NCBI GenBank assembly: GCA_016176465.1
Contig: JACOXD010000004.1
Location: 114,119-178,118, forward strand
Direction: 5' to 3'
Origin: Candidatus Daviesbacteria bacterium
GTDB lineage: Bacteria > Patescibacteriota > Microgenomatia > Daviesbacterales > UBA10151
Length of the DNA stretch: 64,000 nt
The notes beneath the pieces are model-generated. The model worked only from the letters and a program-made list of their open reading frames with translations. It did no database searches and had not been told where the DNA came from. Shown here piece by piece: positions 5,449 through 61,133 of the stretch (within the stretch, counting starts at the first letter, position 1; the number at the start of each line of letters is the position of its first letter). Made by a program: the position numbers and the translations under genes.

Positions 5449-6597
5449 ATGAAACTACTTCATTTTTCTGATATTCACATTGGTATGGAAAATTATGCAA
5501 AGCTAGACCCTCAAACTGGACTATCTACTAGATTACTTGATTTTTTTAAAACTTTTGATTTTATAGTGGAAACTGCTTTTGAAAAAGAAGTTGATGCGGT
5601 AGTTTTTGCAGGAGATGCTTATAAAACTAGGGACCCAAATCCAACTCAACAACGAGGCTTTGGAGAGAGAATTAGAAAATTGGCTAAAAAAATTCCAGTT
5701 GTTTTAGTGGTAGGAAACCATGACACTCCAAATGCAGAGGGTAAAGCAAATACTTTAGATATTTACTCCGCTTTGGAAATAGATAATGTCTGGGTTTCAA
5801 GAGTTCCAGAGCTTCTAGAGATTCCAACAAAATCTGGAAATTTACAGATTGTTACTCTTCCTTGGCTTCACAAAAATGATTACAAAACTATTGGAGAAAA
5901 ATTACGTTTACTCTATGATAAAATTCAAAAAAACTCCCCTGCCATATTTTTATCACATGCTGAGGTAATTGGAGCTGAATATGGAAGTGAAAAAGGAATG
6001 ACTATTGCAAATGATGTAACAATTCCTTTGTCAATTTTGCAGGAAAAAAAGCTATCTTATGTCGCACTCGGACACATCCACAAACACCAAGTTTTATCTA
6101 AAGACCCATTAGTTGTATATGCAGGTTCTCCTCATAGGATTGATTTTGGTGAGGAAAAAGAAGAAAAAGGAATTTGTTTGGTTACCATCGATGATGTCAT
6201 TCCCGCGGAAGCGGGAATCCAAAAAAATAGATCCCCGATCAAGTCGGGGATGACATTCCCCGCCACATTCCAATTTACTAAAACTCCTTGTCGAGAGTTT
6301 CTCACCATCATTGTCAATCTAAAAGGGTCTGACCCTAACCCAACTCAAACTATTTTAAATGAGATTGGCAAACAAACTATTAATGAAAAAGTTGTAAAAG
6401 TAATTATTAATATTCCGGCAGAAATATCTGGTGAAATTGAAATGGATAAAATTAAAAAGGCTTTAAACGCTGCACACTACATTGCAGGAATCTCAAGAAA
6501 TGTTGAGAGAAAAGAAAGGATAATTATTGAAACAAAAGGAGTTGAAACTCTTTCTCCAATCCAGGCTTTAGGCAAAAAAATTTACTCCTCTTCATAA
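5449..6597 (+). CDS. sbcD: SbcD/Mre11-family nuclease. It carries an in-frame GC-rich hairpin-element insertion at about 6195-6270.
   Basis: MKLLHFSDIHIG, VVFAGDAYKTRDP, VVLVVGNHDTP and GHIHKHQ are calcineurin-like phosphoesterase motifs typical of SbcD. The segment IPAEAGIQKNRSPIKSGMTFPATFQ is encoded by two GC-rich inverted repeats. Confidence 0.75.
   Translation: MKLLHFSDIHIGMENYAKLDPQTGLSTRLLDFFKTFDFIVETAFEKEVDAVVFAGDAYKTRDPNPTQQRGFGERIRKLAKKIPVVLVVGNHDTPNAEGKANTLDIYSALEIDNVWVSRVPELLEIPTKSGNLQIVTLPWLHKNDYKTIGEKLRLLYDKIQKNSPAIFLSHAEVIGAEYGSEKGMTIANDVTIPLSILQEKKLSYVALGHIHKHQVLSKDPLVVYAGSPHRIDFGEEKEEKGICLVTIDDVIPAEAGIQKNRSPIKSGMTFPATFQFTKTPCREFLTIIVNLKGSDPNPTQTILNEIGKQTINEKVVKVIINIPAEISGEIEMDKIKKALNAAHYIAGISRNVERKERIIIETKGVETLSPIQALGKKIYSSS
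6195..6270. repeat. Pair of GC-rich hairpins (TCATTCCCGC-GGAA-GCGGGAATC and ATCCCCGA-TCAAG-TCGGGGATGAC) inserted in frame in sbcD
   Basis: Perfect inverted repeats of 8-9 bp. The same two hairpins, in the same relative order and in the same orientation with respect to the coding strand, occur at 7075-7176 inside the RT gene. A related ATTCCCG...CGGGAATGACA hairpin is at 26298-26345 in murB. Confidence 0.6.
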
Positions 6598-6628
6598 GAA
6601 AAAATTAGAAGAATATGCTGCAAAGTTA

Positions 6629-7441
6629 CTAGAAAATTAACTTTTGCCTTAATTTAAAACTGTTTGCATGACTTAAATAACCTAAATAAGATTGAAGTGG
6701 CCGATTAAAATTCTCTGATCCTAATTCTTTTAATTTTCTAAAAATTCTTCTTTTTGTTTCTGTTCTAGGCAATCTATAGTGGAGCAAAACAATATATCCT
6801 AAAAAATCAATTCCCCAATCAAGCTTTCTTAGTACAATTTTTTTAGGATGCAACTCAAGTTTTAGATGATCTTTTAGGAATTCACTGATCTGATCTATTA
6901 ATTTAGTATGATAGACTAGTCTATTAGAACTTAATAAAATTAAAAAATCATCAGCATATCTTAAATAATACTTAACTTTTAATTTGTGCTTGATAAATTG
7001 ATCTAACTCATTCATGTAAATATTAGCAAAGATTTGGGAAGTTAAATTACCTAGAGGAATACCCTTACATCCTTTGTCATCCCCGACCCATTTCGCCGAA
7101 GCGGGAGCGAGGCGAGCCTGATCGGGGATCCATGAATATTGTCTGTTTATTATATTCCCGCTTCTGCGGGAATGACATGTACAGAAACTGCTAATTACTT
7201 GTTTTAGTAACCAGGTAATACTCTCATTTGGATCATTAACATAAAAAGAAAAATAATCTCCGTGTCTGTATGTTTTACTCTTTAACATTTCATAAAGACT
7301 AAAAAGATTGTCCTCTAAGTTTCTTTCAAAAGCTTGAATATCAGCTCGTTTCTTTTTTCCTTTTCTAAACTCATTCCATGCTTGAAACAAATTATCTATC
7401 ACACTGCCTGATTTTAGCCTTGACATACCAATTTTTACCAA
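6629..7441 (-). CDS. Reverse transcriptase (group II intron-like or retron-like, 270 aa). The fingers region is replaced by GC-rich hairpin-element sequence, so it is probably inactive.
   Basis: An RT0-like N-terminus (DNLFQAWNEFRKGKKKRADIQAFERNLEDNLFSLYEMLKSKTYRHGDYFSFYVNDP) is followed by RT motifs: GIPLGNLTSQIFANIYMNELD (motifs 3-4), YLRYADDFLIL (motif 5, YADD) and GIDFLGYIV (motif 7). The expected K.R.I...DR...HA block is absent. Two GC-rich palindromes (7075-7132, 7153-7176) occupy that position. Confidence 0.7.
   Translation of the reverse strand: MVKIGMSRLKSGSVIDNLFQAWNEFRKGKKKRADIQAFERNLEDNLFSLYEMLKSKTYRHGDYFSFYVNDPNESITWLLKQVISSFCTCHSRRSGNIINRQYSWIPDQARLAPASAKWVGDDKGCKGIPLGNLTSQIFANIYMNELDQFIKHKLKVKYYLRYADDFLILLSSNRLVYHTKLIDQISEFLKDHLKLELHPKKIVLRKLDWGIDFLGYIVLLHYRLPRTETKRRIFRKLKELGSENFNRPLQSYLGYLSHANSFKLRQKLIF
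7075..7176. repeat. Pair of GC-rich hairpins (TGTCATCCCCGAC...GATCGGGGATCC and ATTCCCGC-TTCT-GCGGGAATGACA) inside the RT ORF
   Basis: See 6195-6270. This copy is the reverse complement of the sbcD copy, with a larger loop (CGCCGAAGCGGGAGCGAGGCGAG) in the first hairpin. Confidence 0.6.
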
Positions 7442-7553
7442 ACTTTATGATTTTTACAAAAATTTAAGTCAGGCAGTTACTACTTTTCCCAAAACTAAAC
7501 GTTATAGGGTATTTGTCAACATTTTACTTCCAAGCTATACTACAAAAACTTAA

Positions 7554-7982
7554 ATGGAAAAAAAGAAATTAAAAAAAGCTGTGATTTTTATTTTTTTAAA
7601 AGATAGAAAAGTCTTAGTAGAAAAGCGGATAAGAGATGCAGAAAAAATATTGAAAAATCAACTTATTTTTCCAGGAGGAGGTTTGGAAGAAAAAGATTTC
7701 GATGATCTAGAAGTTGCGCTGAAACGAGAGATTTTTGAAGAACTCGGAGTATCCGCTTCGAAATTTTCACAATTAGCAAAAGGGTTGAAAATTATTAGTG
7801 CCGGTAAAGATGCCAGTTTACATCCATTTATTATTGAAGCTTGGGAAAATGAAATTCCTGAAAAAATTTTAGATAAAGATGTTCCTCTTTTTTGGGTGGA
7901 TATAGAAGTTATGCTAGAATCCAAAATTGCTCCAACTAAAAAAATAGCAGAATTGGTAAAAGACTATTTAGAAAATGTATGA
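7554..7982 (+). CDS. NUDIX hydrolase
   Basis: A Nudix box FPGGGLEEKDFDDLEVALKREIFEELGV (GGx5Ex7REuxEExGu). A 4-nt overlap (ATGA) couples it to the sbcC start. Confidence 0.65.
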   Translation: MEKKKLKKAVIFIFLKDRKVLVEKRIRDAEKILKNQLIFPGGGLEEKDFDDLEVALKREIFEELGVSASKFSQLAKGLKIISAGKDASLHPFIIEAWENEIPEKILDKDVPLFWVDIEVMLESKIAPTKKIAELVKDYLENV

Positions 7983-10179
7983 TTCCTGTTTTACTGAAAC
8001 TATCTAATTTTACAAGCTATGGAGAAAAAGCGCCTGAATTAAATTTTACAAAATTTAAGCTCGCTGCAATTTCCGGTCCTAATGGTGCTGGTAAATCTTC
8101 ACTTCTTGATGCAATAACATGGTGTCTTTGGGGAACCTCAAGAGCTGGGGACTCATCAGATGAGTTGGTTAGGCTAGGGAGCGATAAAATGTTTGTGCAG
8201 TTTAGTTTTGAACTTGACGGAAATCTTTATACTGTTAAAAGAGCAAGATCTAAAAAAAGCGGTGGAAATACTAGCTTAGAGGTTTGGTCTGGAACAGAGA
8301 AAAAGCCAGAAACACACAATTTAACAGAAGGGACAATTAAAGCGAGCCAGCAAAAAATAATTGATACGCTACACTTAAGTTTTGAAACTTTTACCAACTC
8401 CTCTTTTTTGCGACAGGGTCATGCTGATGAGTTTACTACCAAAGGTCCAACAGATAGAAAAAGAATCTTAGCTAAGAAAAAATAAAAGAAGCGGAGATTA
8501 AATTAACACTTTTGGACTATCAACTTCTGGAAATAGAAGCAGAGCTTTCTTTAAAAAAAGATCGGGAAAAAAATTTTAGTCAAATCCAAAACGAGGTAAA
8601 TTCAGCTAAAAAAGGGGTTTTAGAGATCGAAAGTTTAATAAAAACAATTGAGGAGGAAAAACAATCTATACAGGTAAAGGTCAGTACCTTACTTGAATCC
8701 AAAAAACGCTTTGAGGATTTAAACAAAGAGATTGAGGATTTAAAACTGCAAATTAAGTTAAAGGAAAATACGAAGGAGGAATACCAGCTAATTTTAGATC
8801 AAAAGCAAGTTATTGAGAAAAATTATCAAATGTTACAGAAGTTACAAGAGAAGAAAAAAACTTTGGATAACAAAAGATCACATTTAATAAAACTTAAAGA
8901 TGAGTTGGTTTTGATAGAAAAACAAATTAATGAAAGAGAGGACAAAAGGAAACAAACTATTGCCCATTTAGAAATAGAAGGTAAGGAATTTGAAACAAAA
9001 AATGAACAATTAAAACTTCAAAATGAAAAACTAAGTAAAGAAAAAACCCTATGCCCTACTTGTAATCAACCTATTAGCGGAGAAAAAAACAGGGAAATAA
9101 TTTTAAATAATAAAAAACAAATTGAAGAAAATAACGAAAAACTAAAGGATTTAAGGCAAAAAATTGAAAAATATAAAGTGGTTATTTTGCCAGAATATCA
9201 ACTGGCCAAGGGAAAAGATATGGAGGTTAAAAAATTAGAAGAGGAAACTAAAGAATATTTTGAAACAACCAAAACCCTTTTAGAATTAGATAAGTACTCC
9301 CAAGCATATATGAAACTACAGCAAGCAGAAGTTGCTGTTAAAACCCACCAAGAAACTCTAATTGATTTAGAGAAAATATATAAGATAAAAAGTAAGGATT
9401 TAGAAAAATCCCAAAACTTTAAGGAAAACCTGGATAAGTTTTCAAAGACGTTAGAGGAAATTGAGGAAAAATTAGAAGGCAAGATGGAAGTTAAAAAAGA
9501 ACTCTCCCAAAAGGTTTTAGATCTCTCAGGAAGAGCTGGTGAAGCAAAACAATTAATAGATAGAACCATCCAAATAGAAAATTTATTCAACTTGAAAAAG
9601 AAAGAGAAAAATAAATTAACTAAAGAAAAAGAAATATTTGAGGAGTTAAGCTTAGCTTTTGGTAAAAGAGGCATTCAGGCAATGATTATTGAGGCAGCTA
9701 TTCCAGAAATTGAGGATGAAGCAAATAGGCTACTTAATAAATTAACTGAAGGCAGGATGAAGGTTCGCTTTGAAACTCAAAAAGAAACAAAAACTAAAGT
9801 TCAAACTAGTGAGGGAAAAGTTCATGCTTTAGTTGAGACTTTAGATATCATCATCTCAGATGAAATGGGTGAGAGAAATTATGATCTATATTCAGGAGGA
9901 GAAACTTTTCGGGTCAATTTTGCAATAAGATTGGCAATCTCCAAATTATTAACTCATCGAGCTGGAGCAAAGTTACAATTTTTAATTATTGATGAAGGAT
10001 TTGGTACTCAAGATGCAACAGGTAGAGCAAGATTAATAGAAGTAATTGATGCTATTAAAGATGATTTTGAGAAAATTTTAATTATTACTCATCTTGAGGA
10101 GTTAAAAGACGAGTTTCCGGTAAGAATTGAGGTTTCAAAAGATGCTTCAGGATCCACTTTTGAAATGGTCGGCGCTTAA
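7979..10179 (+). CDS. sbcC: SbcC/Rad50-family ATPase, split into two ORFs (7979..8485 and 8512..10179) by a -1 frame break at an A-run (8477-8485)
   Basis: N-terminal ORF: Walker A GPNGAGKSSLLDAITWCL. C-terminal ORF: a long coiled coil, a zinc-hook CPTC, the ABC signature LSGGETFRVNFAIRLA, and Walker B/D-loop LIIDEGFGTQD. A -1 shift after AAA (8480-8482) reads ...RILAKKK-IKEAEIKLTLLDYQLL..., which fuses both parts collinearly. The second ORF otherwise starts at TTG. Confidence 0.7.
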
Positions 10180-10616: not shown

Positions 10617-11984
10617 GTGAATAAATTTTATGTAACCAACTCTATACCATATGTTAATGCCAAACCTCATGTGGGATTAGCCTTGGAGTATACTCAATCA
10701 GATACAATTTATAGGTATCATAAGCTTTTAGGGGAAGAGTGCTTACTTCTTTGCGGTGCAGATGAAAATGCTTTGAAAAATGTTCAAGCTGCTGAAGCTG
10801 CTGGTGAAGATGTCCAAAGTTTTGTTGATAAAAATGCTAAATTTTTTCAGGATTTAGCTGAAAAGTTATACATCCACTTTGATGTTTTCCAAAAAGGAAG
10901 CGATCGTAAACACCATTTAGCTAGCCAAAAGTTATGGCAGCTTTGCAATAAAAGTGGCGATATCTATAAAAAATCCTATAGAGGTCTTTACTGCGTCGGT
11001 TGCGAACAGTTTTATACTAAGGAGGAATTAAATGAAAGTGGTGAGTGCTTTGAACATCCGGGTAAAAAACTTGATGAGGTTTCAGAAGAGAACTATTTTT
11101 TCAAACTATCAAAATACCAAGATAAACTCTTACAATTAATAGCGTCTGATGAATATCAAATCATTCCTGAATTTAGAAAAAATGAGATGCTTATCTTTAT
11201 CAAAAGCAGCTTACAGGATTTTAGTATTTCCAGAAGTAATGAAAGGGCTAAAAACTGGGGGGTGCAGGTTCCAGGAGATCCAACACAGCGAATTTATGTA
11301 TGGTTTGACGCTTTAAATATTTACCAATCAGGTATTGGGTTTGGATCTGATGAAGAAAAATATAACAAATGGTGGCCGGCTAATTTACATGTTATTGGCA
11401 AAGGTATTATTAGATTTCATGCAATTTATTGGCCAGCAATTTTGCTTTCTGCTGGGCTAAAGTTACCTAAAAAGTTATTTGTCCATGAATATTTCACTGT
11501 TAATGGTCAAAAGATTTCCAAAACCTTAGGTAACGTTATAGATCCAACTCCCCTAACTTCGCAGTTTGGTGCTGACGGACTAAGATATTATTGTTTAGCT
11601 AAAGTCTCCCCCTTCCAAGATGGAGATTTTACAATTGATAAGTTAAAAGAAGCATATAACTCTGATCTAGCTAATGGTTTAGGCAACTTAGTTTCAAGAG
11701 TTGCTAAGCTTTGTGAGAAAATTAATTTTGAAGCTCCAAAATTAGAGGAAAAATTTGATCCAGAAGTAAAGCAGTTACTTGAGGAATATAAATTTAATGA
11801 GGCACTAGCTTGGATCTGGGAGATTATTTCTATTGCAGATTCTAGGGTAAATGAAGAAAAACCTTGGGAAAAAGAGGGTCTAGATTTAAAAGAAGATTTA
11901 GATGAATTAGTTAGATTAATTCAACGTATTGCTTTTAATTTACAACCCTTTCGGCTCTTTTTCCCAGGATATAATGATATTTAA
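10617..11984 (+). CDS. metG: Methionyl-tRNA synthetase, minimal form lacking a C-terminal tRNA-binding extension
   Basis: The class I HIGH-region variant NAKPHVGLALEY, the CVGCEQF zinc knuckle, the KMSKS motif KISKTLGNVIDP, and an anticodon-binding helix region. Confidence 0.8.
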   Translation: MNKFYVTNSIPYVNAKPHVGLALEYTQSDTIYRYHKLLGEECLLLCGADENALKNVQAAEAAGEDVQSFVDKNAKFFQDLAEKLYIHFDVFQKGSDRKHHLASQKLWQLCNKSGDIYKKSYRGLYCVGCEQFYTKEELNESGECFEHPGKKLDEVSEENYFFKLSKYQDKLLQLIASDEYQIIPEFRKNEMLIFIKSSLQDFSISRSNERAKNWGVQVPGDPTQRIYVWFDALNIYQSGIGFGSDEEKYNKWWPANLHVIGKGIIRFHAIYWPAILLSAGLKLPKKLFVHEYFTVNGQKISKTLGNVIDPTPLTSQFGADGLRYYCLAKVSPFQDGDFTIDKLKEAYNSDLANGLGNLVSRVAKLCEKINFEAPKLEEKFDPEVKQLLEEYKFNEALAWIWEIISIADSRVNEEKPWEKEGLDLKEDLDELVRLIQRIAFNLQPFRLFFPGYNDI

Positions 11985-24007: not shown

Positions 24008-24100
24008 ATTTATTCTAAAACTCCCATTAAATCATCAAACAGATCCTTCGCTACTCTCAGGATGACAATTTGATTTGAGAAATTATACTCAAATTGTTAT

Positions 24101-24430
24101 CTACTCCAAAATAGCCATCAGATCGTCGAACTTAACGAGCTTGTACTCCTTTCCTCCTACTTTAATCTCATCTCCACCCCATTTTTTAAAAACTACTTTA
24201 TCTCCCACCTTAACTGGTGCAACCATTACTTTGCCATTTTCCAAAATTAAATCATCACCAACAGCTACCACCACTCCTTGAGCGGGTTTTTCTTGAGCTG
24301 ATTCTGGTAGATAGATGCCTGATGCAGTTTGAGTATCTGCAGCTGATGGCTCAATTAGAGCATATCCCATTAAGGGGCGAAGATTAACTTTAGTAGCATT
24401 ACTTGCTTTATTATTTTTTTGTTTAACCAT
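24101..24430 (-). CDS. groES: Co-chaperonin GroES (Cpn10)
   Basis: VNLRPLMGYALIEP...ASGIYLPESAQEKPAQGVVVAVG...KVGDKVVFKKWGG shows typical GroES mobile-loop and roof motifs. Confidence 0.85.
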   Translation of the reverse strand: MVKQKNNKASNATKVNLRPLMGYALIEPSAADTQTASGIYLPESAQEKPAQGVVVAVGDDLILENGKVMVAPVKVGDKVVFKKWGGDEIKVGGKEYKLVKFDDLMAILE

Positions 24431-25602: not shown

Positions 25603-25687
25603 TAACACATTATGTCATTCTGATACGTCAGTGAAGAATCTAATTAGATCCTTCTCCCCTCCGGGGGCCCGCACTAAGGATGACAAA
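25603..25687. repeat. Bipartite GC-rich hairpin element (module X, gtcattctga...gaagaatc, plus module Y, gatccttc...cccgcact.aggatgacaaa), intergenic copy upstream of murB
   Basis: Module Y at 25637-25686 is about 85% identical to 38161-38204 (inside valS) and is reverse-complementary to 60746-60783. Module X recurs at 38206-38246 and 60790-60817. A short Y-like copy is at 24043-24070. Confidence 0.6.
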
Positions 25688-25704: not shown

Positions 25705-26847
25705 ATGAATGGCTTAGATAGCAAATTCAAAGAAAAAATTGTTAAAGATTTACCCTTTTCAAATCTAACAACCTTAAAAATTGGTGGACCTATCAAGTAT
25801 TTTTTTGAAGCTAAAACTGAGGATGAGTTAATAGAAGCTGTTAAATTTGCTCAAAAAAATTCTCTTCCCTATTTAGTAATTGGTGGCGGATCTAATCTTT
25901 TGGTATCTGATAAAGGATATGATGGACTAGTTATAAAAAATTCCATAACTGGAATAGCGAGGGGTGACAGCGAGGAGAGGTCTTGGCGCGTACCCGCAGC
26001 GATCAGGCAACGACCTGAGAGTGAGGATACACGACGAGAAACCGAGCTGGCAGGACCCGGAGCAATTTTGAAGGTAAAAGGCGGGACTGTTTTACAAGAT
26101 TTAGTGGATTATTCTATAAAAAATGGTTTATCTGGTTTACAAAAGATGACTGGGATCCCAGGAACTATAGCTGGGGCAGTTTATGGAAATGCAGGTGCTT
26201 ACGGCCAAACTATTTCTGACCATATAGTAAAGGTGACCATTCTAAAACCAACAACAGGGTCATCTTTCAACTTAATTGGAGGATCCAGTCAGATAGATTC
26301 CCGCTGGAGTTTACCCCGTACCTCGATACGGGACGGGAATGACAATACTGAAATTAAGACCCTAACCAAAGACGCATGTGGATTTGATTACCGCCATAGT
26401 TCCTTTAAAGAAAACAAATCCATTATTTTAGAAGTAATTTTTGAGCTGGAACAGGGAAATCCTAAAACTTTAAAGAAAGAATCTGAAGAAATTTTAGAAA
26501 AAAGATTAGTTAAATATCCAAAAGGAATTAAATGTCCTGGTAGTTTTTTTATGAATATAGTTACTGAAAATTTGCCAAAGGATGTTTTAGAAAAAATTCC
26601 CCAAAATATGATTATGTATGGAAAAATCCCTGCAGGAGCACTTTTAGAAGAAGTTGGAGCAAAAGGAGATTCAATTGATGGAATAGAAATAGCTCCTTAT
26701 CATGCTAATTTATTTGTTAATAAAGGTGGTGGTAAGGCTGAAGATTTTTACAATTTAGCTAAAAAATATTTTCAAAAAGTTAAAGAAAAATTTGGAATTA
26801 CCCTTGAACCAGAAGTCCAATTAATTAATTTACCAGCCTTAAATTAA
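25705..26847 (+). CDS. murB: UDP-N-acetylenolpyruvoylglucosamine reductase MurB, with in-frame insertions
   Basis: An FAD-binding N-terminus (LTTLKIGGPIKYFFEAKTEDELIEAVKFAQKNSLPYLVIGGGSNLL) and a MurB C-terminal domain. A GC-rich segment of about 105 nt at 25955-26063 (ARGDSEERSWRVPAAIRQRPESEDTRRETELAGPG) interrupts conserved blocks, and it is homologous to an insert in tsaD. Confidence 0.75.
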   Translation: MNGLDSKFKEKIVKDLPFSNLTTLKIGGPIKYFFEAKTEDELIEAVKFAQKNSLPYLVIGGGSNLLVSDKGYDGLVIKNSITGIARGDSEERSWRVPAAIRQRPESEDTRRETELAGPGAILKVKGGTVLQDLVDYSIKNGLSGLQKMTGIPGTIAGAVYGNAGAYGQTISDHIVKVTILKPTTGSSFNLIGGSSQIDSRWSLPRTSIRDGNDNTEIKTLTKDACGFDYRHSSFKENKSIILEVIFELEQGNPKTLKKESEEILEKRLVKYPKGIKCPGSFFMNIVTENLPKDVLEKIPQNMIMYGKIPAGALLEEVGAKGDSIDGIEIAPYHANLFVNKGGGKAEDFYNLAKKYFQKVKEKFGITLEPEVQLINLPALN

Positions 26848-34232: not shown

Positions 34233-35396
34233 ATGAATAAATTTAAATTAATTTTAGGGATTGAGACATCTTGTGATGAAACAGCAGCTGCAATACTAAA
34301 AAAGGATGAAGGTCAGATTACTATTTTATCTAATATTGTTGCCTCTTCAGCTAAATTACAAGAAAAATATGGAGGAATTATTCCAGAACAGGCTGCTAGA
34401 GAACAGATTAAAGCTATCATTCCTGTTATTACTGAAGCGCTTAAAAAGGCACGAGTAACAAGTGATAAGTTAGATGCCATAGCAGTTACCCAAGGACCTG
34501 GTTTAATAGGTTCCTTGCTAGTAGGGGTCGAAACAGCTAAAGTTTTAAGTTTAATTTGGGAAAAACCTTTAATTCCTATAAATCATTTATTAGGACATTT
34601 TTATGCAAATTGGATAGCGACGGAGGGTGACAGGGAGGAGAGATCTCGGCGCACCCCCGCAGCGAAGTTGTTACGAGACGAGGAGGTACGACGAGAAACC
34701 GAGCTGGCAGGACCCCCAAGCGTACCAGAGTTCCCCTATCTTGGACTTTTAGTCTCTGGTGGCCATACAGATTTAGTTTTATTTAAAAATCACAATGAAT
34801 ATGACTACCTAGGTGGAACAAGGGATGATGCAGCTGGTGAATGCTTTGATAAATGCGCCAGGTTACTGGGATTTCCCTATCCTGGTGGACCAAAGATTTC
34901 TAAACTGGCAGAGAATGGAAATCCCAAGGCTTTTAAATTCCCAAGACCTATGGAAAAATCTAATGATTTTGATTTTTCTTTTTCCGGCTTAAAGACTTCT
35001 TTTGCTAATTTAGTTAATAGTTCAGAGTTTAAAGTTCAGAGTAAAAAATCAATAAGCTACAAACTCAAAGCGAAGCGTACTCATAACTTAGTCTCTGACT
35101 TAGCTGCATCTTTGGAACAAGCCATTATTGATTCACTCATTACTAAAACCATTAAAGCTGCTCAAAAATATAACATTAAACAAATCATTATTGCAGGAGG
35201 AGTTGCTGCTAATAAAAAACTAATTTCAGAGTTACAATTAGCTATTAACAATGAACTATTAACTATTAAACTCTTTGTTCCTCCACCCTATCTTTGTACA
35301 GATAACGCTGCAATGATTGCCTCCCGTGCTTTTTTTGAAAAAGAGATTAAAGATCCTATATCTTTACAAGCAGATCCAAATTTATCCTTAGCTTGA
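34233..35396 (+). CDS. tsaD: tRNA N6-adenosine threonylcarbamoyltransferase TsaD (Kae1/Gcp family), with a 35-aa in-frame insertion
   Basis: LGIETSCDETAAAI, the HLLGH metal-binding motif, and LVSGGHT. A GC-rich segment at 34612-34722 (ATEGDREERSRRTPAAKLLRDEEVRRETELAGPP) lies between the two conserved motifs and is homologous to the murB insert. Confidence 0.8.
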   Translation: MNKFKLILGIETSCDETAAAILKKDEGQITILSNIVASSAKLQEKYGGIIPEQAAREQIKAIIPVITEALKKARVTSDKLDAIAVTQGPGLIGSLLVGVETAKVLSLIWEKPLIPINHLLGHFYANWIATEGDREERSRRTPAAKLLRDEEVRRETELAGPPSVPEFPYLGLLVSGGHTDLVLFKNHNEYDYLGGTRDDAAGECFDKCARLLGFPYPGGPKISKLAENGNPKAFKFPRPMEKSNDFDFSFSGLKTSFANLVNSSEFKVQSKKSISYKLKAKRTHNLVSDLAASLEQAIIDSLITKTIKAAQKYNIKQIIIAGGVAANKKLISELQLAINNELLTIKLFVPPPYLCTDNAAMIASRAFFEKEIKDPISLQADPNLSLA

Positions 35397-36044: not shown

Positions 36045-36302
36045 ATGTCTGAATTTGAAGGACCATGGGATATTGAAATGGAAAAAATTTGGGAGCAATA
36101 CAAAGGTCAAAGGACTCCAGATGTACCAACAAACAGGTATTTAGAATTTGGAGAAGATGGTCAACCCTTAGAAGATTACAGGCTCAATCAGCTACCTCCA
36201 ACAGCCCAATATATTTCTAAGCAGCCAAATAGACTTAAGATATTTGCTACTTTCCCTTACCATGTAGTTACCCAAGCAAATTTAGAAGGCAGAAATGGAT
36301 AA
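36045..36302 (+). CDS. Small hypothetical protein downstream of the sigma-like gene
   Basis: 85 aa, overlapping the valS start by 8 nt. It could be an anti-sigma-like partner, but there is no motif support. Confidence 0.2.
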   Translation: MSEFEGPWDIEMEKIWEQYKGQRTPDVPTNRYLEFGEDGQPLEDYRLNQLPPTAQYISKQPNRLKIFATFPYHVVTQANLEGRNG

Positions 36303-38550
36303 AACTCAAAATACTGAGGAAAAATGGTACAAGTTTTGGGAAAATCAGGGACTTTTTAAAGCAGACCCTGATTCTTCCAAGCCTTCATATTCTATTTTAA
36401 TGCCTCCTCCTAATTTAACTGGTGAACCACACGCTGGGCACACAATCCAACATTTAATAATGGACGGCTTAGCCAGATTTAAAAGAATGCAAGGATTTGA
36501 TGTTTTATTTCAACCCGGTGTTGATCATGCAGGGATTCAATTTGAAGGAACTTTAAATAAGTTATTAGAAAAAGAAGGTTTAAGGAAGATAAGTTTGGGT
36601 AGAGAGAAATGGATGGAAAGAGCCTGGCAATTTAAAGGTGAGATTTATAAGTCTTTCCATAAAACCTGGAGAGCTATGGGGATTTCAGCTGACTGGAAAA
36701 GAGAAGTTTTTACTCTAGATCCTAAAATGCAGCGAGCTGTTTTAGAGGAATTTAAAACTTTTTGGGAACAAGATCTTTTATACAAAGGAGCATATATTGT
36801 CCAGTGGTGCCCTAAAGATGCTACTGCTATTGAGGATTTGGAAATGGAGTATGAGGAAAGGACTGAAAAGCTCTACTATGTTAAATATAAAGTAGCAGGA
36901 GACCCTAGATATCCTAACGAAGAATACATTGTGGTAGCTACTGCTCGTCCAGAAACAATTTACGCCGATGTCGCTATTGCTGTTCATCCTGAATCTAGAT
37001 ACAAAGATTATGCAGGAAGAGATGCTTATAAACCTCTCGCTCCTAGTGAAAAACTCGTAGATAGAGAGATTAAAATAATTACAGATGATAGGGTTAATAA
37101 AGAATTTGGAACAGGTGCTTTAAAAATAACTCCTGGCCATGATCCTCTAGATTATAAGATAGGCAAAGACCACAACTTATCTATCTTACATGCTGTTGAT
37201 AAAGCAGGAGGGATGACAGATTTGGCAGGCGATCTTAAAGGATTATCTGTTTCAGAAGCTCGAGAAAAAACAGCTGAGATGTTAGACAAACAAGGATCTA
37301 TTGACCACATTGAGGAATACACTCATTCAGTGCCAGTTTGTGAAAGGTGTAAATCTACTATTGAACCCTTAGTTTCCGAGGAATGGTTTGTAAAAATGAA
37401 GCCTCTTGCCCAAAAAGCCCTAAAATCCCTAAAGGATATCAACTTTTTTCCAAAGAATTTTGAAAAAGTAATTGCTGATTGGTTAGAAGAAATTCATGAC
37501 TGGTCAATTTCTAGGTCTTTGTGGTGGGGACACAGAATCCCTGTTTGGTATTGTCAAAAGTGTAATTCAAACCACGAAGTAGGAAAAGATAAAGATATGG
37601 TTATATCCTTGACTCACCCAGAGCAAAATTGCCAAACTTGTAAGCTAAATCAATGGGTCCAGGATGATCAGATTTTAGATACCTGGTTTTCATCAGGTCT
37701 TTGGCCCATGGCAACCTTAGGCTGGCCCTCCTCCGCTGAAGCTTCGGAGGGTAAACCAGACGAGTGGTTAAACATGAAGAAATATTACCCATATGATTTT
37801 GAAATATCTGCTCCAGAAATTAAATTTTTATGGATTGCTAGAATGATTATGCTGGGGGTTTGGTTTGCTCAGGATATTCCTTTTAAAAATATGTTTTTTA
37901 CAGGGACACTGCGAGACCTTCAAGGAAGAAAGTTTTCTAAGTCTTTAGGAAATGGGGTTTTTCCTTTGCCTTTAATTGATACTTGGGGAGTGGATGCTTA
38001 TAGAATGGCTATTTTTGGCTTTGCAGCTCCTGCAAGAGATGGAAGGGCAAGCAGACAAACTTTGGATGAAAGGTGTAAGAACTTTAGAAATTTTGTAACA
38101 AAGCTTAAAAACATTGCTAAGTTTATAGTTGATTTAAAACCAAAAGGAACGCAGTCATTAGATCCTTCCTCCTTAAAGGGACCCGCACTTCAGGATGACC
38201 AAACAGAGAATGTCATTCTGAGCGCCAGAGAAGAATCCAATCCAGAAGATATTGAAATTCTTGAGAAACTTAATAAAACAATTAAAAATGTAACAAAAGA
38301 ACTAAATAAGTTTAACTTTCATTTAGCCTCTGATTTTATTTATGAATTTATTTGGCATGAATTTGCAGATAAATATATTGAATCATCTAAAAATAGAAGA
38401 AAAGATGCTCAACCAGTTTTAGAATATATCTTTAAAACTTCTTTAGAGCTTCTTCATCCTTTCATGCCCTTTATTACGGAGGAAATTTGGCAAAGGCTCC
38501 CACATGCGGAAAAATCCATAATGATCGCCAAGTGGCATGAAGTTAAATAA
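36295..38550 (+). CDS. valS: Valyl-tRNA synthetase, short form (751 aa, no C-terminal coiled coil), carrying a hairpin-element insertion at 38161-38247
   Basis: The HIGH motif PPPNLTGEPHAGH, an editing domain, KMSKS KFSKSLGN, and an anticodon-binding domain. The segment SLDPSSLKGPALQDDQTENVILSAREESNPEDIE is encoded by the GC-rich bipartite element. Confidence 0.8.
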   Translation: MDKTQNTEEKWYKFWENQGLFKADPDSSKPSYSILMPPPNLTGEPHAGHTIQHLIMDGLARFKRMQGFDVLFQPGVDHAGIQFEGTLNKLLEKEGLRKISLGREKWMERAWQFKGEIYKSFHKTWRAMGISADWKREVFTLDPKMQRAVLEEFKTFWEQDLLYKGAYIVQWCPKDATAIEDLEMEYEERTEKLYYVKYKVAGDPRYPNEEYIVVATARPETIYADVAIAVHPESRYKDYAGRDAYKPLAPSEKLVDREIKIITDDRVNKEFGTGALKITPGHDPLDYKIGKDHNLSILHAVDKAGGMTDLAGDLKGLSVSEAREKTAEMLDKQGSIDHIEEYTHSVPVCERCKSTIEPLVSEEWFVKMKPLAQKALKSLKDINFFPKNFEKVIADWLEEIHDWSISRSLWWGHRIPVWYCQKCNSNHEVGKDKDMVISLTHPEQNCQTCKLNQWVQDDQILDTWFSSGLWPMATLGWPSSAEASEGKPDEWLNMKKYYPYDFEISAPEIKFLWIARMIMLGVWFAQDIPFKNMFFTGTLRDLQGRKFSKSLGNGVFPLPLIDTWGVDAYRMAIFGFAAPARDGRASRQTLDERCKNFRNFVTKLKNIAKFIVDLKPKGTQSLDPSSLKGPALQDDQTENVILSAREESNPEDIEILEKLNKTIKNVTKELNKFNFHLASDFIYEFIWHEFADKYIESSKNRRKDAQPVLEYIFKTSLELLHPFMPFITEEIWQRLPHAEKSIMIAKWHEVK
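38161..38247. repeat. Bipartite GC-rich hairpin element (Y+X modules) inserted in frame in valS
   Basis: GATCCTTCCTCCTTAAAGGGACCCGCACTTCAGGATGACCAAACA plus GAGAATGTCATTCTGAGCGCCAGAGAAGAATCC. These are homologous to 25603-25687 and inverted relative to 60745-60818. Confidence 0.6.
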
Positions 38551-51587: not shown

Positions 51588-52051
51588 GCACCCCTATACT
51601 CAATGGTTTTAAAATGGAAAATTACCGGATCGCTTAAGGTTTTATTATTTTCAAACTTGGTACCTACTTGAATATTTAATGTATATCCCTGGCCTAAGGA
51701 AAAAGGATCATTTGGAATAATTTTTAAGGTTTTATTATTATTAGTTAGCTCAACTTTAAAGTCTATATTGGGTTCAATAACTATTCTGGTTTCAGGGATA
51801 TTTACCAAGGGTTGGTTAAAATTAATCTCCAAAGTCTGTGTAGGTAAAATAGTAGCTTCCTCTAGTGGGGAAGGGTTAGTTGAGATAACCTTGGGAGTTT
51901 CATCTTTAGGTTCTTGGTCAGCTGTAATAGGAAAATCTTTAACAGGAGTTTCACTTTTTGAGTAAAGTCCACCTTGGAAAATAGCAATTAGTAAAAGTCC
52001 TAAAACAGTAATTATAATTATTAATGGTTTTTTTAATAAAGAGAATTTCAT
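51584..52051 (-). CDS. Membrane-anchored extracytoplasmic protein (hypothetical), the last gene of the T4SS-like cluster
   Basis: 155 aa with an N-terminal TM helix (LLKKPLIIIITVLGLLLIAIF) and a beta-rich ectodomain. Confidence 0.35.
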   Translation of the reverse strand: MKFSLLKKPLIIIITVLGLLLIAIFQGGLYSKSETPVKDFPITADQEPKDETPKVISTNPSPLEEATILPTQTLEINFNQPLVNIPETRIVIEPNIDFKVELTNNNKTLKIIPNDPFSLGQGYTLNIQVGTKFENNKTLSDPVIFHFKTIEYRGA

Positions 52052-52656
52052 TCTCTGATTAAGTCTTCTTTAATAGGTCCTGATTCATTAATATCCTCAC
52101 CAAATTCTCTAATGTATTTCTCAGCAGTGCTTGGTTTAAATAATTGTATTTCATAAACTTCCTCTGTAAAAGGATTCGCAATCAAGGCAACGCCTTTAGA
52201 GCTATAAATATGAGTTTCGATTAAGGGTCCATATGTCTTAGAGCCTTTTTTGATACTTTCCACTTCGCCAAATCTTTCCTTGAAGTAGGAAAGCTTGACA
52301 TAAGATGGATGATTTGTTTGTTCTGGAATATTTATTCTTTCAAAGATAACTTGGCCATCTTTAACAATTACTTGATCTGGTCTTACAGGATTAATGTAAG
52401 TTTCTAAATTATATTCAACCTTTCCCTCTCCCAGCTCTTTTTTCTCCTTTATTATTAAGTTTTTTTCTATCTCTTGGGAGTTGGTTTTCCCAATTATTGT
52501 TTTTTGTAAATCAGAAATTTTAGGTGGGGTTAAACTCTCTTGTGGTTTTTTTAAAAATATAATTAGTAAAAGTATTAATATTAAAATTAAAAGTAAAACT
52601 AAAATCAATATGAAAACTGGCTTATTTTTAGGTATTAAAAAATAAAATTTATCCAT
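52048..52656 (-). CDS. Membrane-anchored extracytoplasmic protein (hypothetical, in the T4SS-like cluster)
   Basis: 202 aa with an N-terminal TM helix (VFILILVLLLILILILLLIIFL). ATGA overlaps give translational coupling. Confidence 0.35.
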   Translation of the reverse strand: MDKFYFLIPKNKPVFILILVLLLILILILLLIIFLKKPQESLTPPKISDLQKTIIGKTNSQEIEKNLIIKEKKELGEGKVEYNLETYINPVRPDQVIVKDGQVIFERINIPEQTNHPSYVKLSYFKERFGEVESIKKGSKTYGPLIETHIYSSKGVALIANPFTEEVYEIQLFKPSTAEKYIREFGEDINESGPIKEDLIRE

Positions 52657-52657
52657 A

Positions 52658-53401
52658 TTAATAGTTTCCTAATATATAGTTTGCCACATTATAGTGAAGA
52701 GGGAAATCCTCTCTTAAGTTTGGCGGGTGATAATCTGGTGAACAAAGGACTGTTTGCAATTTAGTTTCTGGGTTTAAGTAGTAAGCAATAGTTTCTGCAA
52801 AATCCTCAGAAATGTTATTACTTTTAGTGCATTCATATGCGTGGTTGCCATACCAAGTAACTCCTTTCTCAACCGCATGGGCCCTGAGATAATCTGACCA
52901 GCGAATCTGTTCCCGGTTATTACAGTTTGCAATAACATGGCCTAGTTCGTGGATTAATATTAACTTAAAAAGGGTTTCATCTTGGTAGGTTCCTACGTAT
53001 ACACTAACGCCTTTGAAACATCCCACTTGGGAAGAATCACGAGGGACTGAAGCAAATATTGTTGAGCCACGTACGTAATCAAAAAATTTTGTGTGAGAAA
53101 CATCCCAAAATTTTTCCCAAGCCCAGCGTAAGTGCCTGGTTCCATAATTTCTCATGGTAATTCCAAATTTTTCTTTAATTGCCCCTTCCAATGCAGCATC
53201 AGGAATATCTGGAGCAGTAGCCCTTACTCCTAGCTGAAGGGAGTTAGATACTTGTGGTTTTTGATCTAAGGGAGCATCACCAACCCTGGTGATTACTGGG
53301 TTACTCTTAACTGATTCCTGTGCAAAAACCAAACTAATAGTTGGTGATACTAAAAATGATAATAAAATTAAGATGTAAGTTAGGATTTTCATAATTAACA
53401 A
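52658..53401 (-). CDS. Secreted HExxH zinc metallopeptidase-like protein
   Basis: An N-terminal signal peptide (MKILTYILILLSFLVSPTISLVFAQE) and the LILIHELGHVIANC HExxH motif. Cys-rich. Confidence 0.45.
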   Translation of the reverse strand: MLIMKILTYILILLSFLVSPTISLVFAQESVKSNPVITRVGDAPLDQKPQVSNSLQLGVRATAPDIPDAALEGAIKEKFGITMRNYGTRHLRWAWEKFWDVSHTKFFDYVRGSTIFASVPRDSSQVGCFKGVSVYVGTYQDETLFKLILIHELGHVIANCNNREQIRWSDYLRAHAVEKGVTWYGNHAYECTKSNNISEDFAETIAYYLNPETKLQTVLCSPDYHPPNLREDFPLHYNVANYILGNY

Positions 53402-53973
53402 CCCGGCGCCATCGGATCAAATTTATATCCGCTTCCGCGCAGCTTATTGGAGACTTCAAAATTCAGATAAAATACTGCCGGAACCTGGCAAATCCCCTCA
53501 TCGCTAAAACCTTGTTCTTTAAACCAGCTAACCGTCTCCTCTTTAGCAAGGTCAATATCTGTAGTTAAAATTTCTACCATAAATTCATCCGCTGCTTTTA
53601 CATACTCTACCTTAAAGGTAGAAGTTGTAATTAAAATAGAAGATTGGTTTCCAATTGATGAAAGCAAAGAATCTTTAGCCGCCTGGTCCAAAGAAGAGAG
53701 GGTTTGACGATTTTCTAATCTATCAAGCAATTTTTTGGTCTTTGGGCTTTCATAAGTTATTGGAGGTTGTGTAATTTCTGATGAAGGAGCTGGGGAGAAA
53801 CTTGGAACACTAGATGGCAAGGGAGAAGTTCTCAACTCTTTTTTAGAAAAAAGGCTAGAGATTATTATAAAAACTAACCCTAAGATGGCAATTAATAAAA
53901 TAATTATTAAAATTTTAGTATTTCCAGGAATTAAACTTAGCATCTTATTATCGCCTATACTTATCTTGGGCAC
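53395..53973 (-). CDS. Membrane-anchored extracytoplasmic protein (possible VirB8-like bitopic component)
   Basis: 192 aa with an N-terminal TM helix (ILIIILLIAILGLVFIIISSLF), a Ser/Pro linker and a globular C-domain. The topology matches VirB8-like proteins, but there is no motif evidence. Confidence 0.3.
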   Translation of the reverse strand: MPKISIGDNKMLSLIPGNTKILIIILLIAILGLVFIIISSLFSKKELRTSPLPSSVPSFSPAPSSEITQPPITYESPKTKKLLDRLENRQTLSSLDQAAKDSLLSSIGNQSSILITTSTFKVEYVKAADEFMVEILTTDIDLAKEETVSWFKEQGFSDEGICQVPAVFYLNFEVSNKLRGSGYKFDPMAPGC

Positions 53974-55713
53974 AGGCCCAGTAACCCCAGGTTCTACCTT
54001 TGGTTGCTAAGAAATTATTGTAATTGATTGCATTAGTCGTTTGTAAGGTCCAAACCACATCTCCATGGTCATACTGGCCATTTCTTCCTCTGCCCATCTG
54101 ATAAAGTCCCCATGCACCTTGCGGATCAGGTGACCCACTGAAGAAATCATTTGGGTTATAACTACTTTCACAAGGGATAATTACATTAAACCAGAAATAA
54201 GCGTTAGTTGGATCATTTTGCTCTATGAGGGTATATAAATCATCTTTAGTAAAATTACATTGGGGGTCACCATAATTTTGCCCCAATGGGTTATTTAACT
54301 TATACCTTCCACTACATGTGTCATTATTTGCAGGAACATTTCCGGTAGTTGGAATGGTTCCAGCTCCACTAGTTGAGGTTATCTTTGCATCAGCACTGTT
54401 TACTACCCAAATATTATCATCAAGTGGGGCAACAACTAAAGCTAGTTGTTTAGTTTGACCTGAGGAAAGAGAGAATTGCCAGGTGACCACCTTACCTCTG
54501 CATTATCAGGGATAATATCTGTTACCTCAATATTAGCTATTCCTTGACCTAGGTATCCAACATTAATTGTGTATACAATAGGTTGTCCATTAGCAACCGC
54601 TCCATCAACCCCCCCTGGCCCTGTTTTAGAAATTGCTAATTGTTTGGAAGAAGATAGATTTTGGCCAGGAACTCCTCCTCCAAAAAGATTTAAAAGCATT
54701 GCCCCAAAAATTATCAAAAAAAGTAATCCTATAAAAAGTAGAGCTAATCTTTTATCAGCGATGGTCCTGGTTGGACCAAAGCGCCTAAACCTTCCAAAAA
54801 ACCGCCCTCCATTCCCTAGAAGTCTACCTCTTCCTGAGAAAATTCTTCCCAGATTAATATTTGGCCGCCAGGAGAACATATTTCTTAAAGGCATCCTAAA
54901 AGTTCTGGAGCTACCACTACTGCCTCTAAGGATGCCCATAAAACCTAAAATTCGATTACTAAAAAAAGCACCGCCTAATCCGCCAATGGCAGCGCCACCC
55001 CAGCTTCCGACTATTCCACCCATGACTGCCCCAGCACCGCCAGTCCATAAAGCAGGCTTACTTAAGATTTTTTTAAATGGAACAGTGTTAATTTTATTGA
55101 GAGGAATTTTAGAGAGGAGGTTGCTACTTCTTTGAAAAAAACTCCCTAAATTTTGCCTAATATTAATTGGTGCTCGCGGAATAGGACTTGGAGCAGGAGG
55201 CGAAGAAGGAGTAGGTGTTGTTGGAGTTGGAGGTTGACTCGGTTGGGGCTGAGGAGGGCTGGCGGGTGGCTGTGGAGGTTGTTGGGGAGGAAAGGGGGCT
55301 TGGTGGGGGAGGCTTGCTGGTGCAGAAGCTCCTCCATGAGATGGAGTAGGAGATGGTGTTTCTTGTTGTGACTGCTGGGCTAACTCAGCTTGTTCTGCCT
55401 CTGCTTCTTGTCTAAATTGCTCAATAACCTCTTTTGGCTCCTCAATTACTTTATTGGAATTCCAAATTTCATTTAGGTCAGGATCATTTCTTGCATAAGC
55501 AGTAGCAACAGTATCAATATAGCCTTCAGTTGTTGGCAAAACCTTAAATTTTGCTGGTAGAAATCTCTTGGAGTATTTAACAGCTAATTTTCGTGAAATG
55601 CGAGATGGAAACCCAGGGATGTTTAGGCTCCTAAATTGATCCTGCTTATTTTTATGAAACCTTAAAATTACGTTTAAAAGTGCTTTATGTAAACTAAACT
55701 GGACTAAAGCCAT
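53948..55713 (-). pseudogene. Surface protein with a Pro-rich region, a TM helix, a DUF11 conserved-repeat domain and a C-terminal VirB1-like lytic transglycosylase (SLT) domain. It is interrupted by a -1 frameshift at about 54442-54490 (track ORFs 54442..55713 and 53948..54490).
   Basis: Upstream ORF: PQQPPQPPASPPQPQPSQPPTPTTPTPSSPPAPSP, a Gly-rich segment, the TM LALLFIGLLFLIIFGAMLL, then a DUF11-like IVYTINVGYLGQGIANIEVTDIIPDNAEV. The DUF11 unit continues in the -1 frame as VVTWQFSLSSGQTKQLALVVAP. Downstream: SLT motifs CESSYNPN (ES), GAWGLYQM (GLMQ-like) and NAINYNN (AYN-like). Confidence 0.5.
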
Positions 55714-55715
55714 TT

Positions 55716-57497: not shown

Positions 57498-57500
57498 ATC

Positions 57501-58271
57501 TTAATCCTCTAGTTCCTCAACAACAAATGGTGTAGTAGTTCTTGGTTCACTAGGATAAGCTATCGGTGCTGTTTTTGGTGTAGTAGTTGCCTGAGGGCTA
57601 GTTATTGGAGGTGTTGAGGGTTGAGTTGTTGCCATCTGAGCAGGTGGATTAGGGGTAGAAAGTGAAGAAGCGAGGGGTAAGTTTAAATTAGTTGATTCAA
57701 CTTCTAAAACAGTTTCTTGAAATTCACTAGGGTTATAAATATCATAAAATAATTCAATTAACTTAGCACTGTTTAATTGCTGCGCTCGCAAGCCTATTCT
57801 CCATAATTGACGGATAATATGGTCTCGCCTTGGAATTAAAATAGTCAAAGCTTTTTGGCTGTTTTTGGTACTATTTTTTGTTAAGCCAAGTTCTAGATAA
57901 GAGAGGGGAATGATTATAAAAAATTGTTTATCCAAAACATCATTTTCTTTTACTGTTTGGGAGATAAAATTTTTATACCTTAAAATCATTGATGCAAGTA
58001 AGGGGTTACTTTGTTTTTTGTGTGCCTCTTCAAGCTTTTCCAAATAAGAGGTGACATTTAATCTTTTAGACCTAATCATAATTTGAATTGAAAAAGAAAG
58101 TGAGTTTAAAAGTCCGGCAAAACCGCTAATGATAGAAAGCTGTTCTCGCTCAGATAGTAAGCCAAAGTTAACAGCGCTTGTCTCCAATATAAGTGCTAAG
58201 CTAGAATCTTTTAAAATGACTAAATCACCTTGGATATCTTGGATTGGTAAATGTTCTTGAGTAGTAGCCAT
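57501..58271 (-). CDS. VirB4 N-terminal-domain-like protein (a separate ORF immediately upstream of the ATPase ORF), with a Pro/Thr-rich C-terminal tail
   Basis: LPIQDIQGDLVILKDSSLALILETSAVNFGLLSEREQLSIISGFAGLLNSLSFSIQIMIRS matches the N-terminal pattern of Gram-positive VirB4 homologs (ip.~~i~dgii~~kdGsy~kil~v~~iN~~L~s~~E). A TAA stop and a 3-nt spacer precede the ATPase ORF. Confidence 0.45.
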   Translation of the reverse strand: MATTQEHLPIQDIQGDLVILKDSSLALILETSAVNFGLLSEREQLSIISGFAGLLNSLSFSIQIMIRSKRLNVTSYLEKLEEAHKKQSNPLLASMILRYKNFISQTVKENDVLDKQFFIIIPLSYLELGLTKNSTKNSQKALTILIPRRDHIIRQLWRIGLRAQQLNSAKLIELFYDIYNPSEFQETVLEVESTNLNLPLASSLSTPNPPAQMATTQPSTPPITSPQATTTPKTAPIAYPSEPRTTTPFVVEELED

Positions 58272-58308
58272 AATAATAGTTAATAGTTCACAGTTAATAG
58301 TTTATTGT

Positions 58309-59490: not shown

Positions 59491-59639
59491 AACACAACAA
59501 GCTTATAATGTGAAAATTTTACTGTCCAGCCACTCAAAATAGATCATTTTCCACACAATATCTTGGATCTTGAAAAACTTAACTAAACCCTATACGCTAA
59601 GTAATAACTAAATACTTAAAGGATAGATTGGATCAGACC

Positions 59640-61098: not shown

Positions 61099-61133
61099 GT
61101 GAAAGTTATTTCTTTGCCTGTTTATCAGTATCT

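Follow-up and report, generated by a model that had tools for sequence, protein, structure and literature searches.

The short hairpins with GTCAT ends that recur in a 64,000-nucleotide stretch from a Candidatus Daviesbacteria bacterium (contig JACOXD010000004.1, positions 114,119 to 178,118; hereafter the window, 34.6% GC) are probably copies of the NTS/SRM repeats that are substrates of Ssn nucleases, and thus would represent a known family in a new phylum. The Ssn family was described in 2025 in Nature Communications (PMC11893778); SsnA is a single-domain GIY-YIG protein of 94 residues that binds and cuts its hairpin only as single-stranded DNA (ssDNA). The key base for binding is the C right after the palindrome, cleavage is governed by the three nucleotides before it, and the cut falls a few nucleotides 5' of the repeat; the Neisseria repeat NTS reads CGTCATTCCCGCGMAVGCGGGAATCYRG and contains the dRS3 repeat ATTCCC-N8-GGGAAT (PMC11893778). 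This dRS3 consensus is matched exactly in the window at 6199-6218 and 7154-7173, and the bases conserved in the window units, GTC and C, match the positions that are key for Ssn cleavage and binding. Over its 28 nt, 6195-6222 departs from the NTS at three positions, and unit 6255(-) fits the published degenerate SRM expression. Since the units match NTS/dRS3 and SRM, their partner is likely a GIY-YIG ssDNA nuclease of about 95 residues and not a transposase of the HUH/RAYT type. An earlier note on this DNA had proposed that such hairpins are substrates of HUH/RAYT or IS200-type enzymes; the notion of a hairpin recognised in ssDNA is retained here, but that enzyme assignment is not supported, in view of the GTC...C flank and the candidate GIY-YIG partner.

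One unit consists of GTC, a palindrome of 16-50 nt that opens with the AT of GTCAT, and a C, and it is this half-element, not the pair, that repeats. In an inverted pair the GTCAT ends point outward, the spacer measures 2-36 bp and the total length is 60-100 bp; such a pair makes up a non-autonomous element. Twelve units are present in the window, arranged as four inverted pairs and four units that stand solo or back to back. All 12 start with GTCAT, with the GTC directly 5' of the palindrome, and 11 of the 12 have the C directly 3' of it (...ATC), the exception being 7176(-), which ends in ...AATA. The window holds 10 matches to the pattern GTCATYCY-N6-36-RGRATC, where chance would give 0.15 (shuffle maximum 1); two units just miss it, 7076(+) because of its 41-nt gap (limit 36) and 7176(-) because of ATA for ATC. 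Nine of the units are intragenic, lying in sbcD, a reverse transcriptase (RT) open reading frame (ORF), murB, an aminoacyl-tRNA synthetase ORF and ORF 59698-61098. The units and related fragments are as follows.

6195-6255 (+): inverted pair in sbcD; left unit 6196-6219 (+), GTCATTCCCGCGGAAGCGGGAATC; spacer CAAAAAAATA; right unit 6230-6254 (-), GTCATCCCCGACTTGATCGGGGATC.
7075-7176 (-): inverted pair in the RT relic, built on the two stems also present in the sbcD pair; units 7153-7176 (-), with ATA in place of ATC, and 7076-7130 (+), with a 35-nt loop.
7088-7121: secondary GC-rich insert nested within the 7076 unit's loop, with AGCGAGGCGAG and the CGAAGCGGG/CCCGCTTCG motif.
24042-24066 (-): solo unit GTCATCCTGAGAGTAGCGAAGGATC, intergenic, downstream of groES.
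25613-25685 (+): inverted pair with stems of class II, described below (ATTCT and ATCCTT), intergenic, upstream of murB.
26296-26343 (-): solo unit GTCATTCCCG...CGGGAATC in murB, encoding the peptide IDSRWSLPRTSIRDGND.
38161-38199 (-): solo unit in the aminoacyl-tRNA synthetase ORF, with a stray GTCAT at 38155.
38212-38237 (+): solo unit GTCATTCTGAGCGCCAGAGAAGAATC in the synthetase ORF, back to back with the preceding unit.
59655-59705: loosely related GC-rich fragment, not a GTCAT unit, sharing AGCGAGGCGAG/CCCGCTTCG with the nested loop insert.
60756-60826 (+): inverted pair (ATCCT and ATTCT stems) in ORF 59698-61098, encoding the peptide NVILTRLGGEGSTKLDSSPSAQNDK.

Several of these places had been listed in the earlier note as related hairpins; related copies are indeed present, but parts of the description need correction. 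The murB copy (there 26298-26345) belongs to the family as a single unit and not as a pair; the "bipartite X/Y elements" at 25613-25685 and 60756-60826 are inverted pairs of the usual kind, with stems of class II; and 38155-38240 proves to be two separate units and not one element. The supposed hairpin at 59650-59720 is related only loosely, sharing AGCGAGGCGAG and CCCGCTTCG with the RT loop insert and lacking the GTCAT-stem-ATC build. A small GC-rich motif, CGCTTCG...AGCGAGGCGAG, is found nested in unit loops and once alone, upstream of ORF 59698-61098, and a unit at 7638 of a related locus (L015, about 7650-7685) carries a loop insert resembling 7088-7121. Directly abutting the right end of the sbcD doublet, 6255-6270 reads GACATTCCCCGCC, and 10825-10840 of the related locus L007 reads GACATTCTCAGCGAG; both resemble the start of a unit, and the sequence right of the sbcD doublet may be a decayed third unit.

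Two stem classes are seen in the window. Class I comprises eight continuous Watson-Crick pairs (ATTCCCGC, ATCCCCGA), and the four perfect 8-bp stems reported earlier for the sbcD and RT copies were all recovered: ATTCCCGC/GGAA/GCGGGAAT at 6199-6218, ATCCCCGA/TCAAG/TCGGGGAT at 6231-6251, ATCCCCGA/35-nt loop/TCGGGGAT at 7079-7129 and ATTCCCGC/TTCT/GCGGGAAT at 7154-7173, each pair being bounded by TGTCAT...ATGACA. In class II a 5-bp outer stem (ATTCT, ATCCT; relatives ATTGC) is followed by GA-rich positions and then by a GCGAAGC-type apex; paired by hand, the ATTCT/ATCCT type would form a continuous stem with tandem G·A pairs. The sbcD element folds as ssDNA at -17.5 kcal/mol (z -5.7) and the RT element at -21.8 kcal/mol (z -3.6), a stability equalled by none of 200 shuffles.

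The pairing itself is kept as the letters change. A metagenome scan that prescribed nothing but the flanks and the loop (GTCATCC-N4-CTTGA-N4-GGATC) gave 129 copies, of which 116, in at least 17 variants, have perfectly complementary inner N4 stems; in Daviesbacteria loci the inner stems were perfect in 8/14 and 5/8. Furthermore, the orthologous sbcD copy in the relatives L003/L007 shows a compensated stem change from CCCCGA/TCGGGG to CCCGGA/TCCGGG. These comparisons strongly suggest that stem pairing is under constraint, and the stems which the earlier note had only read off the sequence are conserved on computational inspection.

Outside the window the units form a dispersed family, and chance and local duplication are excluded; the earlier view that the hairpins are not confined to the 1-kb region of sbcD and the RT ORF was correct. 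In 1.38 Mb of Daviesbacteria-type loci plus the window 152 units were counted, against 33-59 in shuffles. In the Daviesbacteria-type loci they fall into five dominant stem classes, about half of them stand in inverted pairs, and they are very unevenly distributed among genomes. The 129 metagenome copies come from contigs of 27-73% GC, and 60 of them have ATGAC within 75 nt downstream, mostly as part of a recognisable inverted partner and in a few cases as a bare pentamer. NTS-like and class II 30-mers were found on plasmid-database records of Neisseria, Azospirillum, Legionella, sphingomonads, Methylobacterium, cyanobacteria and others (the two N. gonorrhoeae records, at about 2.17 Mb, are chromosome-sized), and NTS-like and class II units were found on at least 120 IMG/VR contigs.

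Comparison with relatives shows that the sbcD element is an insertion. It amounts to 20 residues, VIPAEAGIQKNRSPIKSGMT; in the SbcD homologue alignment these occupy a hypervariable gap that separates two conserved blocks, and a peptide across the insert junctions is TIDDVIPAEAGIQK. At the DNA level a 77% identical relative (L001) has an empty site and a second locus (L009) is likewise without the element, which is, however, present in the 86% identical relative L003/L007. The loop measures 7-9 residues in 25 of 44 loci; among 98 proteins it measures 5-9 residues in 49 and 25-49 residues in 32. Occupied loops carry different unit subfamilies in all three frames, namely GTC ATT CCC, giving VIPA.AGI...SGMT; TCA TTG CGA, giving SLRATAKQS...PRNDG; and CAT TCT GAA, giving RHSELDSES...FGMT. 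The use of all three frames at one site argues for at least three independent insertions. Elsewhere the same loop holds solo units, other small palindromes or microsatellites: in L024 the small palindrome CTGCCTGCCGGCAGGCAG stands alone, in L052 its near-copy CTGCCTTGCCGGCAGGCAG is nested in the first hairpin loop of a doublet, and microsatellite expansions occur in L013, L019, L023, L027 and L066. The AlphaFold model shows the insert as a coil joining strands 241-247 and 272-278; pLDDT is under 50 for residues 252-266 and averages 91 and 93 in the 10-residue blocks on either side.

Judged from the homologue alignments, MurB shows the same insertion pattern as SbcD. The window protein, with 380 residues, is the longest among 120 homologues (the others 296-356); it has two variable sites, one of which holds the solo unit, and this unit is missing from most homologues and shared with P0392. 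The comparison with empty sites in relatives that the earlier note had recommended thus bears out its proposal that these are nucleotide-level insertions which happen to stay in frame: both SbcD and MurB have empty as well as filled sites, and at one site all three frames are used. Its observation that the sbcD and RT elements have the same orientation and different frames also holds: in each case the coding strand of the host ORF reads TGTCATTCCCGC..., in the frame GTC ATT CCC in sbcD (VIPAEAGIQ...SGMT) and TGT CAT TCC in the RT ORF (CHSRRSGN...). To say that the RT ORF is kept open is misleading: this ORF is a relic that merely remains open, since about 95 residues spanning RT motifs 1-3 have been lost. 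Full-length homologues of this ORF have 330-350 residues, and the element lies in a short, variable linker that directly precedes the GLPLGN motif. The ORF is part of a lineage-specific insertion of about 0.9 kb (6642-7553) between sbcD and a NUDIX gene; in relatives these two genes adjoin each other or overlap. The target-site duplications that the earlier note had suggested looking for were not seen: flanking direct repeats are absent at 23 of 26 pairs from the window and its relatives, with no evident consensus in the flanks.

A candidate partner was found in related genomes. The motif scan of related loci detected a GIY-YIG ORF of 95 residues at 20763-21056 of L033 (Pfam E 1.6e-16) with a unit on each side; NCBIfam has no model for this protein. 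More than 4000 homologues were found, including proteins from Daviesbacteria, Levybacteria, Microgenomates and, at 70% identity, Thiohalophilus. Ten further Daviesbacteria loci (L087-L096) carry the gene, three of them from different NCBI assemblies and the others near-duplicate places holding P0142. They share the order DUF8128/DUF87 gene, GIY-YIG gene, XerC-like gene, DivIC, with a tRNA-like sequence, seen by eye only, 3' of the GIY-YIG gene, and with one unit upstream of this gene and a unit plus a pair downstream. In the gammaproteobacterium Thiohalophilus (L097) two units lie upstream of the gene and three downstream. By manual count Tyr7, Tyr18 and Glu65 of the Daviesbacteria protein are spaced like Y6, Y17 and E64 of SsnA (residues from the legend of Fig. 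3 in PMC11893778). Many of the homologues lie on very short contigs, and together with the 70% identity to the gammaproteobacterial protein this suggests horizontal spread and assembly breaks at repeats. No proteobacterial ssnA gene was found beside the NTS copies on plasmids of Sphingomonas, Sphingobium or Legionella. In the window, ORF 24101-24430, which lies beside a solo unit, was considered as a candidate Ssn gene and rejected, being GroES.

The mechanism we propose is modelled on the published Ssn system. In ssDNA each unit would fold into a hairpin and be bound and cut just 5' of it by an Ssn-family nuclease of about 95 residues; judging from related Daviesbacteria, the genome of the window would encode such a cognate Ssn outside the window, and the window units would be its substrates. 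The elements would be copied to new sites without target-site duplication and, in a gene-dense genome, copies would persist in tolerant surface loops where the frame stays open. Such a filter for open frames in tolerant loops would account for SbcD and MurB loops that carry different subfamilies and frames by lineage. Ssn may either move the repeats or only cut them, for example in policing incoming or replicating ssDNA. Taken as a whole, with SRM copies, an Ssn encoded elsewhere, copying without target-site duplication and a filter on persistence, this account is in our judgement the probable one.

Several observations weigh against it. No Ssn-like gene was found in the 64-kb window by regular expression, by tblastn with 20 queries or by Pfam scans, the last of which skipped eleven ORFs identified by eye (GroEL, tRNA synthetase, L25, TsaD, flippase-like, O-antigen-ligase-like, YidC, RnpA, L34, DnaA and DnaN). 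In Daviesbacteria the flanking of the gene by units is seen in two independent contexts, that of L033 and that of the syntenic locus L087-L096. Among 120 metagenomic and 120 viral loci that bear a unit, only one and three, respectively, have the gene within the fetched flank. Compared with the 28-nt NTS consensus, 6195-6222 has three substitutions where the authors of PMC11893778 allowed one. Their degenerate SRM expression matches one of the 12 units, 6255(-) (shuffles 0.11), the long-loop units failing because they are excluded by design; units with loops of 20-40 nt fall outside the published SRM definition. Finally, the published evidence concerns cleavage and an effect on transformation, not transposition (PMC11893778).

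A stronger version of the Ssn account, in which the system is truly mobile and the GIY-YIG nuclease copies doublets into ssDNA without target duplication, in gene-dense CPR (Candidate Phyla Radiation) genomes repeatedly in frame and into the same exposed loops of essential proteins, is rather doubtful. Were it true, it would be the general mechanism that underlies selfish DNA in coding genes of the kind known as Rickettsia palindromic elements (RPE), and the recurrent use of loops in SbcD and MurB would be due to targeting, perhaps of hairpins or loops already there, and not only to selection.

Mobilisation by a different enzyme would be an alternative for how the units spread. REP and REPIN repeats moved by RAYT, or IS200/IS605 hairpins moved by a Y1 HUH transposase, share with the units a conserved 5' flank, the arrangement of about half of the copies in inverted pairs, as in REPINs, and insertion without target duplication. 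In REP repeats, however, the conserved 5' flank is GTAG, and here it is GTC(AT); the gene flanked by units encodes a GIY-YIG protein, and the units, with 9 of 12 inside genes, are not extragenic. The earlier statement that the window has no transposase agrees with the Pfam scans of its ORFs, the eleven named above aside, and no Y1_Tnp domain was present in these ORFs or in the gene tables of relatives, where the earlier note had advised looking for a RAYT, IS200 or IS605 TnpA gene. We regard this explanation as improbable, although an analogy to REP was also noted for SRM (PMC11893778). A classical miniature inverted-repeat transposable element, derived by deletion from a DDE insertion sequence and ending in TGTCAT/ATGACA terminal inverted repeats, would be consistent with the 6-bp repeat at the ends, with the small size of the elements and with their dispersal. 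Such an origin is very hard to reconcile with the lack of duplications at most pairs and with the frequency of single and back-to-back units, in which the "terminal repeat" is merely the flank of each unit; nor was a transposase seen in the window or a parent insertion sequence in the approximately 1.4 Mb examined.

The units might chiefly be targets and not movers, either integration or recombination sites of site-specific recombinases or phages or hot spots of homologous exchange: dRS3 was reported as the target of a phage recombinase (PMC11893778), units occur on the viral contigs mentioned above, and palindromes are nested in loops (L052 and the RT copy). As this leaves the arrival of units at new intragenic sites unexplained, and no integrase or phage adjoins the window copies, it is an unlikely explanation on its own, though one compatible with the Ssn account. 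A further reading takes the inserts for protein modules under selection, or for RNA structures such as terminators or regulators. It could be suggested by the ORFs that stay open and by the retention of the sbcD insert in the 86% identical relative, but three frames yield unrelated peptides, the insert is modelled as a low-confidence coil, and the compensatory change keeps the DNA pairing and not the peptide. Both orientations are used, there is no T-run, and an Rfam scan of the window gave no match, so that a role of this kind is scarcely credible.

If the assignment to Ssn holds, a speculative transposon reading is replaced by a concrete and testable partner, the 95-residue GIY-YIG protein, and the Ssn/SRM system is extended to the Candidate Phyla Radiation (CPR). 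The repeated in-frame colonisation of surface loops of SbcD and MurB by doublets would be a behaviour not reported for Ssn/SRM, and two literatures would be linked, that on Neisseria NTS/dRS3 and that on coding palindromes of the Rickettsia RPE type. Orthologous empty and filled sites, together with three frames at one position, make the gain and loss of repeats countable. For annotation, peptides such as VIPAKAGIQ, SGMT, PRNDG and ILSEAKNL are spurious CPR motifs that derive from the units.

The host genes named above and some neighbouring features of the window are described here.

5449-6597 (+): sbcD (Metallophos), host of the first pair; its protein is identical to one annotated from Candidatus Daviesbacteria. 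The insert is residues 249-268, and a frameshift in an A7 run affects the 3' end.
6629-7441 (-): RT relic ORF of 270 residues.
36295-38550: class I aminoacyl-tRNA synthetase ORF, by eye a valyl-tRNA synthetase.

In the sbcD frameshift region (6572-6641) another frame still spells out the conserved C-terminus KKLEEYAAKLLEN, and sbcC is split into two ORFs (8440-8520) by a deletion of about 25 residues plus a frameshift; this damage to sbcD and sbcC is either decay of the sbcCD operon or the result of homopolymer assembly errors. A second in-frame repeat of about 105 nt, unrelated to the units, occurs at 25956-26065 in murB and at 34616-34726 in a tsaD-like ORF, the two copies being 80% identical, GC-rich and foldable into a long imperfect hairpin; its site in MurB is empty in some Daviesbacteria homologues and occupied in others. 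From about 52000 to 61100 lies a type IV secretion or conjugation-like cluster with proline-rich surface proteins, whose members include a PrgI-family protein (58309-59490, -) and a VirB4/TraC/TraG P-loop ATPase (55716-57497, -).

Compared with known systems, the units resemble the small dispersed repeats of cyanobacteria in their nesting, and the sequences are unrelated. Those repeats, which Elhai et al. reportedly described in 2008, are said to be very short and palindromic, nested in each other and occasionally located in genes; to our knowledge, no nuclease is associated with them. REP/REPIN with RAYT and IS200/IS605 have in common with the window elements hairpins recognised in ssDNA, inverted doublets and no target duplication, but differ in the flank, in their Y1 HUH transposase and in being extragenic. 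Likeness to the Neisseria dRS3/NIME repeats is exact at the level of the consensus; the phylum and GC content differ, the mosaic context of RS and NIME is missing, and the copies here are intragenic.

The RPE of Rickettsia are in-frame palindromic repeats in unrelated housekeeping genes, at structurally tolerant positions of a reduced symbiotic genome (PMC10969869). The window copies behave alike, being in frame in protein genes and missing from orthologues, as seen here for SbcD and MurB; this likeness is behavioural only, and the RPE are about 150 bp long and confined to Rickettsia. A link in sequence between RPE and SRM units is possible, given that Rickettsia is among the SRM-rich genomes of PMC11893778. 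In the literature nothing was found on palindromic elements in CPR bacteria or on a link between RPE and GIY-YIG proteins.

The closest counterpart is the Ssn/SRM system itself. The host here belongs to the CPR (Patescibacteria), no ssn gene lies in the window, the inverted pair is the commonest arrangement (about half of the units), many loops are long or nested, and the window copies are mostly intragenic and in frame, terms ("intragenic", "intergenic", "in-frame") that were not found in the text of PMC11893778. What is shared is the build of the unit, GTC followed by an AT-initiated palindrome and C, with a stem that varies and a pairing that is kept; one unit almost the same as the Neisseria 28-mer; many copies per genome; hosts that are symbionts; and, in related genomes, units that flank a gene for a single-domain GIY-YIG protein of 94-95 residues.

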